Below are positions 1-6,989 of a stretch of 64,000 nucleotides of DNA, in pieces; position 1 is the first letter of the stretch; every line of letters begins with the position of its first letter. Under the pieces are notes generated by a model. It ran no database searches and was not told the DNA's origin. It saw nothing but the letters and a program-made list of their open reading frames with translations. The stretch is from Gemmatimonadota bacterium (GTDB lineage: Bacteria > JBHIER01 > G020348925). The position numbers were made by a program, and so were the translations under genes. The DNA lies in NCBI GenBank assembly GCA_020348925.1, contig CP070758.1, positions 4,773,775-4,837,774 of the forward strand. The letters run 5' to 3'.

Positions 1-1687
1 TGTCCAACTTATCCACGATGGGTGACAGTCGTCCCGGCCCGCAACCGACGGCTCTGATCCAGCCATCAATAGAAAAACTGCCTCCTCCGAAGTTAAGATC
101 GCTCTGGGAGGGAACGTCCACGTAGTGCGGAGTATAGAAATAGAGAGCCCGGTTACCGACTATCCCGGGGACCGGAACAGGTCCATTTGGCATACCTATA
201 GGCCCGGGTACAGGTGTTCCAACGTTGTTCATACTGGATGAGGGAGGAGGCGCTATGTCGTTGACCGCTATTGCACCCGTTGTCTCATCCAGGGGATACC
301 AGGCGACCATGCACTTCGGCGGTGTGACACACGTATCGGGCACTTCCCTGATGCAGATGCGGTCCACATAGGCATACGTAGTGGAATCCCCGTGATTGAA
401 CGCCGATTGATTCTCCGGACTGATCGTGACGATGGAATAACTTGAAGGAGCAGTCCACGCAGGGAGTGTGAACGTCACCCACTGATTGGGAGTGGTGATG
501 AATGGTGTGATACCCATCGTCACCCCATTGGGATCAGTAGGAGAGGTTAGCAGTACATTTCCCGCTCGGACACGGAATCTTGGCTGATAAGGTCTATTCG
601 GCTCCTGAGCCCATTGCACACACAACGATATTTGGTACGCGCTGCCCTGGGTGAGTGTAACGCCCGTTTGGTGGAGTCCTTCGCCAACAACCAGATTTCC
701 CCACATGGCGACGTAGAAGTTATCCCCGCAGCCGCCATGTGAAGTGGCGACATCGGGTGAACCGTAAGCGGGATTCCATGAGCTCGCCTGTCCTGTTGAA
801 GTCATTGGTCCAACAACTGATCCCTGTTCAAAGCTCCAGTTTTGTAAAATGTTGTTTGGGCATTCCGGTTCGGGTGGACAGTCAGTTCCAAAGGCATCGT
901 TGATGCAGAGAATAGAATCGTTCAGACTAAGAAAGTATATTGTATAGTTCTGTGGAGATGCTCCCCCCGTATTGACTGTAAAAGTCCCAATCGGTACATT
1001 GGTGGCTGCGGCACCTGTAGCAATCGGATTCCCACCACTCTCTGCCCAGGTCACAGAAGAGGGTATCTGTGAGCTTATGATAAACGGACTACTGCTCGTT
1101 GCCGAAAGAATGGTCACCGGGTTTTGAGGTATGAGCTGGATTTTGTAAATGAGAGAAGGATTATTATTGTACTGGAGAGTGATCCCTTGCGTGCAAGGGA
1201 GATGGCCTAGGAGACTGTCGAAAACGTTCACCGAATCACAGGAAAATTGCGGCGGTGTGCAGGCGTCGTCCTGGTTGTCATTGTTGTTATCACCAAGACA
1301 AGTTGTGCCCGCCCCGAGAGGCGTACCGGTGGCATGAAAAATGCAGCACGACGGGTCCAAGTCCTGACAGGAGCCGCCGCGGAAACAGCAGGCCTCGGGT
1401 GGGACACATTGCGATCCGGGGCCCATGGGCGACCCTCCGGCACTCACACAGTTCTGTGGGTTAAGCATCTCGCACGTGTCGCCCAAACAGCACGCCTCGA
1501 GTGCAAGATCGCTCCCGACTAAATCTATTGATGAAGTAACATCGCTGTTCTGGGCAATAACGTTTTGCATTAGGCAACAGAGAAGCAGCAACATCCAGAA
1601 CATGAGTCCGTAGTGACAAAGTCTCTTGCAGCTATGCCGACTTCGTACCGAACTTGCCCGGTCGCAAAAATCGTGTTTCATAGACAT
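1..1687 (-). CDS. Large secreted Cys-rich protein (ACC-type Cys repeats, carbohydrate-binding-like region, LamG/concanavalin-like domain); runs off the window start
   Basis: Manual translation: ATG at 1687 after AAAAGGAG, open for 562 codons to the window edge (absent from ORF track). Signal-like MFWMLLLLCCLMQNVIAQ; repeats EACCLGDTCEML...EACCFRGGSCQDL; NILQNWSFEQG; LamG-like start MVAWYPLDE...FSIDGWIR. An in-frame upstream ATG exists at 1801. Confidence 0.85.
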   Translation of the reverse strand, partial: MSMKHDFCDRASSVRSRHSCKRLCHYGLMFWMLLLLCCLMQNVIAQNSDVTSSIDLVGSDLALEACCLGDTCEMLNPQNCVSAGGSPMGPGSQCVPPEACCFRGGSCQDLDPSCCIFHATGTPLGAGTTCLGDNNNDNQDDACTPPQFSCDSVNVFDSLLGHLPCTQGITLQYNNNPSLIYKIQLIPQNPVTILSATSSSPFIISSQIPSSVTWAESGGNPIATGAAATNVPIGTFTVNTGGASPQNYTIYFLSLNDSILCINDAFGTDCPPEPECPNNILQNWSFEQGSVVGPMTSTGQASSWNPAYGSPDVATSHGGCGDNFYVAMWGNLVVGEGLHQTGVTLTQGSAYQISLCVQWAQEPNRPYQPRFRVRAGNVLLTSPTDPNGVTMGITPFITTPNQWVTFTLPAWTAPSSYSIVTISPENQSAFNHGDSTTYAYVDRICIREVPDTCVTPPKCMVAWYPLDETTGAIAVNDIAPPPSSSMNNVGTPVPGPIGMPNGPVPVPGIVGNRALYFYTPHYVDVPSQSDLNFGGGSFSIDGWIRAVGCGPGRLSPIVDKLD

Positions 1688-2046
1688 ACTCTCTCCTTTT
1701 TGTCCAAACAGCAATGAAAGCCAAATCGTTAGCATACGATGATGTTGTTCTTTTTTATAGTTCTCAAGATAAATACGGCTATCCTGGTTATTTCTCAACA
1801 TTCTCCACGGTCTCCTTTGCTCTTTGAAGAATAAGGTTTTATCCTAATATCCGGTGCTGATCAACCACCAAGATAATGAATAGCTTCGTGCTCACGTTCG
1901 GATCGGCATCCCAACCAATGGATCAAAACTCTTCTTCTCTCATAAACACATGTCTTCTCCTAAATCCCACACAACACGCTTCAGGATTTGTAAAGACGGC
2001 AAATTTCTAAAAACGCAATTCTTATGCCACTATCTTTGCTACCGTC

Positions 2047-2715: not shown

Positions 2716-4680
2716 TTACGTTTCGAGAATGACGTTCACTAAGGTCATCACATCCTGAAGGTCGATGGTCCCATCCTGGTTCACATCGGCGAGTCGCTGG
2801 CGCGTCGGGGTCGGCCCGTATATGCCCAAAATGATGTTCGCTATCCGGACAAGATCGAAAACATCCAGTGTCCCATCACAATTTACATCCCCCATCTGAA
2901 CCTGGGTCTGAAACCAGCCGAAGATGCGCTGAAGCACATCCGCCCTCAGATCGAAGGACCTGGCTATGTTGTGAAATTCGACGATCGCTTCGAAGCCGAT
3001 GGCAAAATAGACGATCTTATAATTGTCAATATAACGAAGCGCCGCCGTGCGATCCGAACCGCGATAGGTGAGTACCGGATAGGCATCCTCCAGGGGTACG
3101 ATCTCGTCCGGACTGTTCTGATTGGCCGCACCGTAATCCCCGCTGACGATGGATAATAGATTCAATTGACCTGCGATGGGATCGTCCGGGACCGGATCCA
3201 GCCAGACATCGTTGCTGCTGTCGGCTACAAACTCGGCACGGAGATAGTCTCTGAGAAAGGATGAACCTTGGAGATCTGAGGCGATGTCCTGACCACTGAT
3301 GAGAAGATTTCCTCCTGCGTCCAAATACGCGGTCAGGACTGCCTCCTCCTCGGGCTTGATGGTGGGATCGGACACGCCGGTGAACCAGATGACGATGTCA
3401 TAAGCTGTCAGGAGGTCCGCAGCCGGAGTTCCGTCTGAAGGTGTGTTCCAGACATGATAGGTCTCACCCCGGTCATATAGGGCCATAGTGTAGAATTTTT
3501 CGGCATTGTAGCCCCAGGGAAGAGCTGAAGGGGAGTGGTCGTCGTTGACGATGAGGATATCCGGTTTGCCGATAAGGATCTCGATCACCTCTCGGGATGA
3601 AGCCTGGCCCCCGTTGGCCCTGACCGTGACGGTTAGATGCGTGTAGTGGACCTCCACGTTCTGACTGACCTGGAGTACAAGGGGTGCGGTGGCGTTGTCG
3701 ACTGTGGAGTTGAGGGGGATGTCCTCGAGTTGGACGTCAGAGGTGAGGATTGAGATATCGGGATCGTCGCTGGTCAGCGTAGCCGAGACGCCTGTGGCCA
3801 GAGGTCCGTAATTTCTGACAGAGAATGTTACGTCGACCATCTCACCCATCTCGAAGTTGGAGTCGCCGTCACCTCCGGTGTCGAGAAGATCCAAGTCGAG
3901 AATTGAGACGGCTGTGAAGATTCGGGACTTTGTTGCCTGGATCACTTCGAAGGTCGAGGTGTCTTGGACGAAGACGACGAAGCCGCAGTGTTCGGGTATC
4001 CATTCGGGATCGAGGGTAAAATTTCGAGAGATATCGAGGGACTGGCCCTCTTGGATGGAGAAGGGCTGGCCGTTGCCGTCAGGGTACATTTTCCGCATGA
4101 CGTGGTCATGGAGCAGAAGCCCGTTCGAGGCCTCGTATTCGATTTCGGATTCGGTCAGGACGAATTGAATGACGACGTCCGGAGAAGAGATCTCCTCCGA
4201 AGATGTAATGTGCGCCTGAACCCTCTCGTCCGATCCGTCGAGATCGAAGCCGAGGGTCATCTCCAGCGGAATCTCTTGTTGACTTCTCTGTTCCAGCAGA
4301 GCAACCCATAACTCCCAGGGATCGTCCATGTCGTAGGCATCATCGTCACCGACCCCGTCGAAAAAGAGGCGGGGCACGTACCACACCTTTTCCCCACTGT
4401 GTTCGGGATAGAAATCGACTCGCGCCTCGTTTTCTTCCCTGTTCGCGTTGTAGAAGGGATCGCTCGGGGACGGCCACCAGACGTGGTAGGAAATGAGGGC
4501 CAGATCTTCAGCGTTCAGCTGTTCAAGGACCGCCACACGGGGGTCCGCCTCCGCACAGCCCCGTCACGACGTGTTGGTGAAAAGCTCTCCCAGGACCATG
4601 CGCCGGGCTGCACCCACAGGGCCGGAGAGAGCACAAGAAAGAGACAGCGAAAGAACGAAGGCGGCCATGCTTCGTGTCAT
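2716..4680 (-). CDS. Secreted Omp28-like (thioredoxin-fold) protein with Ig-like, alpha/beta and C-terminal dockerin domains; predicted selenoprotein (Sec39, URGC), 654 aa
   Basis: ATG 4680 gives signal peptide MTRSMAAFVLSLSLSCALSGPVGA, then RRMVLGELFTNTS-TGA(4564-4566)-RGC, in frame with track ORF 2716..4536. Omp28-like motifs YHVWWP..DPFY, YVPRLFFDG, HDHVMRKM. Dockerin GDVNCDGTLDVFD...ADVNQDGTIDLQD. Confidence 0.88.
4527..4546 (-). promoter_or_regulatory. Putative bacterial SECIS hairpin
   Basis: mRNA GGACC-C-CC-GUGU-GG-C-GGUCC; G-initiated 4-nt apical loop 25 nt after the UGA; identical in the paralog. Confidence 0.75.
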
Positions 4681-4737
4681 GGCCGCCTTGTCTCTTTGAA
4701 TCCAAAAGAGGTGAAAAGAAAATTTCATAGACCTCCA

Positions 4738-6690
4738 TTAGCCGCCCAGAATGATGTTTACCAGGACGATGGCGTCAATGATGTTGATGGCTCCGTCTTC
4801 GTTCACATCAGCCGCCCACGCCTGACCGGGTGTCGGCTGGTGCGTTCCCAAGACGATGTTCACCACCCAGACCACATCAATGATGTCGACGTTCCCGTTT
4901 TCATTCACATCGCCGATCTGAGGCTCAAACTCAAACCAGTCGAAAATTCTCTGAAGGAAATCCGCCCGCATATTGAAGGAATTGGCCACATCGTAGAATT
5001 CGACGAGCGACTCGAACCCAAAGGCGAAGTAGACGAGTCGGTAGTCGTTCATGTACCGGAGAGCTGCCGTACGGCCGGAGTTATAGTACGTAAGTATGGG
5101 CATAGCATCTCCGAGAGGCGCTATCTCGTCCGGGCTGTCCTGGTTGGCCGCCCCGTAATCGCCGCTGGCGAGGGACAGCATGCTCAATTCGCCTGTGATC
5201 GGGTCAGCCGTGGGATTGAGCCAGATGTCGCTGCTGCTGTCGGCCACAAACTCGGCGTGGAGGTAATCGCTGAGAAAGGATGATCCCTGAAGATCGGAAG
5301 CGATATCCTGACCACTGATGATGAGGTTTCCGCCTGCATCGAGATAGGCCGTCAGGACGGCCTCGTCCTCAGGTGTGATGGTGGGATCGGAGGCGCCGGT
5401 GAACCAGATAACGATGTCATAGGATAGCAGGACGTCAGCCCCCGGGGTCTCTACCAATGTGGTGTTCCAGACGTGATAGGTCTCATCCCGGTCGTAGAGG
5501 GCCATTTTGTAGAACCCCTCTGCGTTGTAATCCCAGGGGAAGACCGCAGGGATGTGGTCATCGTTGACGATGAGGATGTTGGGCTTGCCGACGAGGATCT
5601 CGATCTCCTCCTCAAAGGTGACCTGGCCGCCGTTGGCCGTGAGGGTGATGGTTATATCGGTGAAGTGGACCTCAACGTCCTGGCTGACCTGGAAGACGAG
5701 AGGAACAGTTGTATTGTCGACCGTGCCGTTGAGGGGGATGTCGTCGAGCTGAACGTCAGAGGTGAGGATGGAGACGTCTGGATCGTCACAGGTGAGCGTG
5801 GCCGAGACGCCTGTGGCCAAAGGACCGTAATTTCTCACGGAGAAGGTGACGTCCACGCTTTCCCCCTGCTCGAAGTTGCCGTCGCCATCTCCTCCGGAGT
5901 CGATGAGGTCGTATTCGATCACTGAGACCGAGGTGAGGATCCTGGATTTTGTGGCTTGGATGACCTCAAAGGTGGCATTGTCCTGGACGAAGACGACGAA
6001 GCCGCAGTGTTCGGGCATCCAACCGGGATCGAGGGTAAAATCTCGGGAAATATCAAGGTGTTGACCCCCTTGAATAGTGAAAGGTTCGCCGTTGCCGTCC
6101 GGGTACATTTTTCGCATGACGTTGTGATGGATATTGGAGCCGTTTGTCGCCTCATACGCGATCTCTGATTCGGTGAGGACGAAGTGGATGACAACATTCG
6201 GAGCATCGAGGGTCTGTTCAGCAGTGATGTGAGCATGGACGGTGCCGTTCGTACCGTCGAAATCGAAATCGAGGGTCATCTCCAGGGGACTCTCCGTCAG
6301 ATTCCTGTCGGTTATCATGTTGGGCCAGGTGTCATCGTCGTACAAGTATTGGCCGTCGATGAAACCATCGAAGAACATACGCGGAACGTACCAGCCACCT
6401 TCAATAGGATCGTCCGGGTAGAAATTGATTCTCCCCTCGTTCTCTTCGACATTGGCCAAGTAGAACGGATCATCATCGCCCGGCCACCATCCGTGAAACT
6501 CGATGAGGGCCAGGTTTTCAGCGTTGCTCTGATCAAGGACCGCCACACGGGGGTCCGCTTCTCCGCAGCCGCCTCACGATGTGTTCGTGAAGTACTCGCC
6601 CAGGACCATCCGCTCTGCGGATTGTGCCTGGTAGGAGAGAACGGAGACGAGGGCAACTGTGAAGATGAGTCCAATGATCGCCCTTTTCAT
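4738..6690 (-). CDS. Secreted Omp28-like (thioredoxin-fold) protein with dockerin, paralog 2; predicted selenoprotein (Sec39, UGGC), 650 aa
   Basis: RBS GGAGGAGG, ATG 6690, signal peptide MKRAIIGLIFTVALVSVLSYQAQS, then ERMVLGEYFTNTS-TGA(6574-6576)-GGC, in frame with track ORF 4738..6546. Dockerin GDVNENGNVDIID...ADVNEDGAINIID. Confidence 0.9.
6537..6556 (-). promoter_or_regulatory. Putative bacterial SECIS hairpin
   Basis: Same GGACCCCCGTGTGGCGGTCC hairpin at the same 25-nt distance from UGA to loop. Confidence 0.75.
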
Positions 6691-6746
6691 GGTCACCTCC
6701 TCCTTGTGATAGGGTGAAACGTGAAACAGAAACCCCACACCACACC

Positions 6747-6932
6747 TCATCCACCCAGAATAATATTGACGAGAACGACGGCATCAACAATATTGACCGC
6801 GCCGTCCTCATTCACATCCGCCGCCCAGCTTTGTCCGGATGTCGGGGCGTGTGTTCCCAAGATGATGTGGAGAGGGAACAGAGCGGCCGTAACGACCAGC
6901 GCGAGCAGGAGCATAATCACCCTTCTTAAGAT
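6747..6932 (-). pseudogene. Internally deleted third paralog: signal peptide fused to the last ~40 aa of the dockerin
   Basis: AAAGGAGG followed by ATC-TTA (no canonical start at normal spacing). LRRVIMLLLALVVTAALFPL is joined directly to HIILGTHAPTSGQSWAADVNEDGAVNIVDAVVLVNIILGG, which closely matches the C-terminus of 4738..6690. Confidence 0.7.
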
Positions 6933-6989
6933 CGTGCCTCCTTTCGTAAAGAGGTGGGTTGATTGTATCAACGGCTGTAACGAAAACCG

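Follow-up and report, generated by a model that had tools for sequence, protein, structure and literature searches.

The 20-nt hairpin that follows the in-frame TGA of two tandem genes, here called par1 and par2, is very probably the bacterial SECIS element of two selenoprotein genes, and a diverged version of it would be found in a distant third paralogue, par3. This assignment is based on the sequence of the window (i.e. the whole stretch of 64,000 nucleotides that was analysed), on that of the genome to which it belongs and on predicted folds. In this view, the hairpin is the version of the generic bacterial SECIS that belongs to one gene family, rather than a form common to the whole lineage. 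The features of the two genes are:

2716..4680, minus strand (frame open from 4728): par1, predicted selenoprotein gene; 654 amino acids in translation, with TGA read as U
4738..6690, minus strand (frame open from 6750): par2, predicted selenoprotein gene and tandem paralogue; 650 amino acids
4564..4566, minus strand: predicted Sec-UGA of par1, residue 39 from the likely start, aligned to Cys in homologues
6574..6576, minus strand: predicted Sec-UGA of par2, residue 39 from the likely start
4527..4546, minus strand: candidate SECIS hairpin of par1, with the GUGU loop at 4535-4538, within the run identical in both genes (4523-4548)
6537..6556, minus strand: candidate SECIS hairpin of par2, GUGU loop at 6545-6548, same sequence as the par1 hairpin

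The start codons were inferred to be the ATG at 4680 for par1 and the ATG at 6690, with GGAGG upstream, for par2. The two genes are 70% identical in DNA and 64% in amino acid sequence, and the product of each begins with a stretch resembling a signal peptide, followed by a thioredoxin-like (Omp28/DUF1223) domain that has the motif F-T-N-T-S-U-x-G-C, a middle module that is repeated in more than 100 proteins of the genome, and a type I dockerin (Pfam Dockerin_1) at the C-terminus. The matches to Pfam Omp28 (PF11551) reach 54.9 and 50.2 bits, above the gathering threshold of 34.9, and DUF1223 and Dockerin_1 were also matched. Each gene contains one in-frame TGA, which lies inside the UxxC motif. 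The third TGA-containing paralogue of the genome, par3, is located 4.5 Mb away and is 52% identical; it, too, has U at residue 39.

In par1 and par2 the hairpin spans nt +18 to +37 with respect to the UGA and is built of a GGACC/GGUCC stem (5 bp), a C/C mismatch, a further CC/GG pair of base pairs and a GUGU loop that begins 25 nt after the UGA. The fold had been proposed in a first-pass annotation of the DNA, and it was recovered both as the minimum-energy local fold in par2 and, exactly, as the RNAalifold consensus of the three paralogues. Its energy is -9.9 kcal/mol for the 20-nt hairpin and -11.3 kcal/mol for the 24-nt segment. Ten nucleotides, including the GUGU loop, are identical in par1, par2 and par3. 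The par3 version is weak, with -3.5 to -6.6 kcal/mol, the latter value being reached by 27% of synonymous recodings; relative to the stem of par1 and par2, two pairs are broken (A-U to C/U and C-G to C/A) and one is gained. Compensatory (double) substitutions among the three genes were absent from the RNAalifold alignment. An Rfam scan of positions 4300-6800 of the window, at E values up to 10, returned only one sRNA match, at chance level and located elsewhere.

The bacterial consensus, as given in the legend to Fig. 2 of a recent review (PMC13188914; the model is that of Zhang and Gladyshev 2005, bSECISearch), comprises an upper stem of 4-16 bp that carries an apical loop of 3-9 nt, with G as the first or second nucleotide of the loop and usually G or U next, a spacing of 16-37 nt between UGA and loop, and an energy of -7.5 kcal/mol or lower. 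With the elements so described in PMC13188914 the hairpins of par1 and par2 share the stem-loop placed within the coding region just after the UGA, as well as the loop size (4 nt), the GU, the spacing and the energy. Their stem consists of seven interrupted pairs, so that it falls within the 4-16 bp of that legend only if the 1x1 C/C mismatch is tolerated, whereas the energy of the par3 version lies above the -7.5 kcal/mol threshold given there.

The cognate machinery is present in the genome, namely a tRNA-Sec (65.8 bits; anticodon tca by ARAGORN) and the genes for SelA, SelB and SelD (598.8, 396.5 and 372 bits, respectively), which form one cluster and of which selD itself carries a TGA. A general reassignment of TGA was rejected, since more of the long ORFs end in TGA (803/1908) than in either of the other stops. 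In the SECIS of Escherichia coli fdhF, SelB binds an apical loop that contains G-U and lies a set distance away from the UGA. The par hairpin may act in a like manner: according to the folding results, the mRNA stem with its small G-U-containing loop would form downstream of the in-frame UGA and, if established SelB biology applies, SelB with Sec-tRNA(Sec) would bind the apical part and deliver Sec at the UGA in the A site. Insertion of Sec would then join the signal-peptide-bearing, UxxC-containing thioredoxin-like domain to the remainder of the secreted protein, which includes the dockerin. The likeness to the E. coli element does not extend to sequence, in which there is no similarity, and the C/C mismatch is found where E. 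coli has a bulged U.

The first-pass annotation had also drawn attention to a run of 26 nt that is identical in the two genes (4523-4548 in par1 and 6533-6558 in par2, both on the minus strand), and had ascribed it to selection at the RNA level. The run is indeed there, with mismatches directly at both ends, and the adjacent codons between the UGA and the run differ, as had been described. Taken as a pairwise comparison alone, this identity is only mildly unusual: par1 and par2 use the same codon at 249 of 418 conserved degenerate residues, a baseline from which simple arithmetic yields a probability of about 0.016 for 8 consecutive identical codons. When par3 is included, the residues conserved in all three proteins within the 9-codon hairpin window have identical codons in 6 cases out of 6, compared with 95/279 (34%) over the whole gene. 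This is the top window of the entire par1-3 alignment, with a probability, again by arithmetic, of about 0.0016, and par3 shares with par1 and par2 identical runs of 10 and 9 nt at the hairpin. Codon bias does not explain the identity, since the codons of the hairpin are non-preferred ones (CGT, CTT and GCG account for 14, 17 and 21% of their families, respectively). Furthermore, among 5000 synonymous recodings only 0.18% (par1) and 0.3% (par2) fold as well as the 24-nt segment. Thus, the codon count, the recodings and the RNAalifold consensus support the claim of selection on the RNA, in the form of synonymous constraint. The same nucleotides also encode the conserved peptide A-D-P-R-V-A-V-L, in which P-R-V, three residues that the par1-3 clade has in addition, encode the loop itself. 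Selection on the RNA, superimposed on the coding of this peptide, would freeze the synonymous positions and thereby give rise to the nucleotide identity among paralogues, as the results of the tools suggest; the element would have been inherited from the common ancestor of par1-3 and held by selection on both RNA and protein.

The identity might nevertheless be the product of shared ancestry, protein constraint and chance, the real SECIS being another fold, e.g. a larger hairpin between GGCUGY, just after the UGA, and GCGGUC. Such a reading, which we regard as unlikely, draws on the fact that the 26-nt run is just the second-longest among the identical runs of par1 and par2, the longest being 32 nt, and that region-wide folding energies are non-significant: the 86-nt region is unremarkable when compared with shuffles (z = 0.33 and 0.61 in par1 and par2, respectively), and 9% and 22% of synonymous recodings do as well as the 57-nt minimum free energy of the two genes. 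Equally stable G-loop hairpins are found in 18% of 400 random Cys-codon contexts of the genome. For par1 there is a more stable alternative fold that is not conserved (-17.4 kcal/mol; loop CGGA, at +16), and the GGCUGY arm takes part in the best hairpins that par1 and par2 form without constraint (-12.5 and -12.1 kcal/mol, respectively). However, this arm is not conserved in par3, the loops of the alternative folds differ between paralogues (CGGA in par1, ACCC in par2), and both the alignment-based fold and the peak of three-way synonymous conservation coincide with the GGACC/GGUCC hairpin, the latter exactly. As for whole-region statistics, they do not discriminate: the 57-nt test is non-significant for par1-3, and it is likewise so for several genes with a bona fide SECIS (Grx, MvhD and AhpC_a).

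A short gene-conversion tract between the tandem paralogues could also have produced the identity without any selection at the RNA level, and the adjacency of par1 and par2, their overall nucleotide identity and the existence of the longer 32-nt run, which has no obvious RNA role, are in keeping with it. A tract longer than 26 nt, which had been named beforehand as an observation that would speak against a role of the RNA, is excluded by the flanking mismatches, and the conservation of codons and of the two shorter runs in par3, at a distance of 4.5 Mb, makes even a tract of 26 nt or less a very improbable cause. The 32-nt run (about 3965-3996 and 5975-6006, minus strand), which encodes P-E-H-C-G-F-V-V-F-V-Q, lacks this three-way conservation at the nucleotide level and probably results from protein constraint, chance or a short conversion tract. 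Finally, standard ORF calling splits par1 and par2 alike at the TGA, as it would if the TGAs were true stops in split or decaying genes, or sequencing errors, to which the hairpin would be irrelevant. This explanation we find hardly credible: the TGA occurs at one and the same residue in the three paralogues, in 9 of 57 metagenome loci, in three loci of the distant genome G036 and in one Gemmatimonadota MAG, always aligned with the Cys of a CxxC motif; the upstream piece carries the signal peptide needed by the dockerin-bearing downstream piece; and the coding potential is positive on either side of the TGA.

The homologues on which part of this reasoning is based come mainly from a metagenome scan that gave 58 loci, with no close relative among them (the best match is 38% identical); of the 57 that were examined, 56 have the motif, and the 9 with TGA represent 8 distinct sequences. 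With alignment A2, the patterns of which were too specific, species-representative genomes yielded a single locus. In the one genome of the same family that was covered, which is 87% complete, the only homologue found has Cys. Throughout, the U falls opposite the first Cys of a CxxC motif. For the comparison of hairpins, 65 distinct sequences were counted (14 Sec and 51 Cys forms, among which relatives are not independent; the MAG locus was left out), and a strict test was applied, which asks that at least 5 bp of the stem be contiguous, that one of the first two loop positions be a G and that the loop start 14-30 nt after the codon. It was passed by 11 of the 14 Sec forms and by 3 of the 51 Cys forms. 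The median energy of the best hairpin is -11.4 kcal/mol in the former and -5.3 kcal/mol in the latter, and the difference is retained among sequences with a GC content of at least 0.5 (-11.3 versus -6.9 kcal/mol; Mann-Whitney p = 1.6e-4, with the relatives again not being independent). The three Sec sequences that fail are par1, par2 and par3 themselves, because the C/C mismatch leaves only 2 bp next to the loop. In other Sec homologues (L052, L056, L059, L060, L061, L073 and L098 of the metagenome; L023, L028 and L031 of G036) the hairpins lie at a like distance, with loops that start 14-24 nt after the UGA and contain G as in par1 and par2 (GUCU, CGUGA, GUG, GGA), whereas the stems are unrelated in sequence to those of par1 and par2 and are contiguous over 5-13 bp instead of interrupted.

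In a tree of 56 rows, from which near-identical duplicates, L022 (too short), L054 (no motif) and L107 (partial) were left out, par1-3 form one clade (support 100/99), to which the exact hairpin sequence is restricted, and the Sec forms need about 7 state changes. The prospect that Cys-containing homologues might carry the same hairpin, which would have weakened its interpretation as a SECIS, was not borne out: the nearest Cys homologues are devoid of it, and the genome's own Cys paralogue has a different and weak hairpin at the same place.

G000:C1:2643819-2644478, minus strand: L033, Cys paralogue of the same genome, sister of par1-3 (support 92/92)

This paralogue, like two other Cys forms, passes the strict test; it has a 6-bp stem, a UGUUUU loop, an energy of -6.7 kcal/mol and the same offset as in its Sec relatives. 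Its hairpin could have arisen by chance or could be left over from an ancestor with Sec.

Other selenoprotein genes of the genome were sought through a genome-wide screen for in-frame TGA, which is noisy: 27,705 raw candidates were reduced to 587 by a six-frame filter, and 18 were checked against Pfam. In 7 of the 18 an above-cut-off Pfam domain spans the U (a thioredoxin-TPR protein, a Thioredoxin_3/glutaredoxin-like protein, two HdrA-like proteins, an MvhD/FlpD and two AhpC/TSA proteins), and in a further 3, which are characterised by an H-C-P-G-G-U motif, the Vgb_lyase matches that span it are sub-threshold only. The sigma-54 activator L118 was discarded, its TGA being its end, as were L119, L120, L121, L123, L124 and L125, which are without family and look like spurious ORFs; L122, also among the 18, was placed in none of these groups. 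Overall, the genome has at least 14 predicted selenoprotein genes, i.e. par1-3 and at least 11 others, of which selD is one.

It had been suggested that the hairpin defines the SECIS form of this lineage and that this be checked by folding the sequence downstream of the other selenoprotein TGAs. Hairpins are present there, but their stems and loops are different: the 11 other genes have loops GUU, GGUC (twice), CGUGA (twice), GUC, GGC (twice), AGUU, CGGGGUA and UGGAU, which start 16-33 nt after the UGA. The hairpin is therefore not lineage-defining, as many other stems and loops are in use in this very genome, and the traits that these elements have in common are those of the generic bacterial SECIS. 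In the set as a whole, a G-loop hairpin of -8 kcal/mol or better is found in 12 of the 14 selenoprotein genes versus 22.5% of 400 control Cys codons.

A large share of these genes (8 of the 14) encode secreted-looking proteins with a dockerin, namely the three Omp28-like proteins (par1-3), two AhpC/TSA proteins (L115 and L117) and the three HCPGGU proteins (L109, L110 and L114); dockerin-bearing genes number well over 100 in the genome. The three HCPGGU genes are located at G000:C1:1815892-1818720, 1818787-1821348 and 2669849-2671258, respectively, and two more (L129 and L133) were seen in genome G001, which makes five genes over two genera. All five encode secreted beta-propeller proteins with the in-frame TGA in the H-C-P-G-G-U motif, a dockerin and a type IX C-terminal domain. 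Four of their five hairpins have a CGUGA loop on stems that vary by compensatory changes (GGCGGG/CCCGCC, CGCGGG/CCCGCG, UACGGG/CCCGUA and CUGGCC/GGCCAG). A Cys-form homologue spanning the motif was not found in 60 other genomes, and a text search of the 2026 review with its table of prokaryotic selenoproteins (PMC13188914) found neither the motif nor the word 'propeller' in the text so searched; the HCPGGU beta-propellers are possibly an undescribed selenoprotein family. A broader proposal, which we put forward tentatively and consider somewhat short of probable, is that the par hairpin may be one of a group of SECIS elements used by an unusual array of secreted selenoproteins with dockerin tags, which might constitute an extracellular or cell-surface selenium redox system, with the HCPGGU proteins as a new family and the interrupted-stem SECIS as one of the minority of forms outside the canonical model.

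With respect to par1-3, NCBIfam gives as the best match NF045500 (Omp28-related selenoprotein, Omp28_seleno), with which they share the Omp28-like domain and the N-terminal UxxC. The scores of the three paralogues (39.9 bits for par1, and 48.6 and 52.8 bits) are below the curated cut-off of 200, above which no members were found in G000 (the genome under study), G001 or G036. Unlike that family, the par proteins are twice as long and have the repeated module and the dockerin in addition. In Table 1 of PMC13188914 the family appears as 'Hypothetical protein GOS_C', with UxxC. From the NCBIfam match and this table of the review, the predicted par proteins are classed as distant relatives of a known selenoprotein family, outside the NF045500 equivalog. 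A literature search found no paper that joins selenoprotein with Omp28 or with DUF1223; paper supplements and BSepDB may list these genes or similar ones.

Recognition of the SECIS would restore three full-length secreted selenoproteins, since gene callers split the genes at the TGA, and the hairpin would provide a worked example of how an RNA signal inside a coding sequence freezes synonymous sites, while leaving the picture of Sec decoding unchanged. The wider selenoproteome of this genome may outweigh the hairpin in interest.

Two further open frames were noticed beside the tandem pair. Downstream of par1, a 600-aa frame (2-1801, minus strand), which is without a Pfam match, runs off the start of the window. 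Just upstream of par2, a small ORF (6747-6971, minus strand) encodes a hydrophobic stretch and then, as its last 45 or so residues, a near copy of the dockerin half at the C-terminus of par2; the ORF represents either what is left of the 3' end of another tandem copy or a mini dockerin protein.
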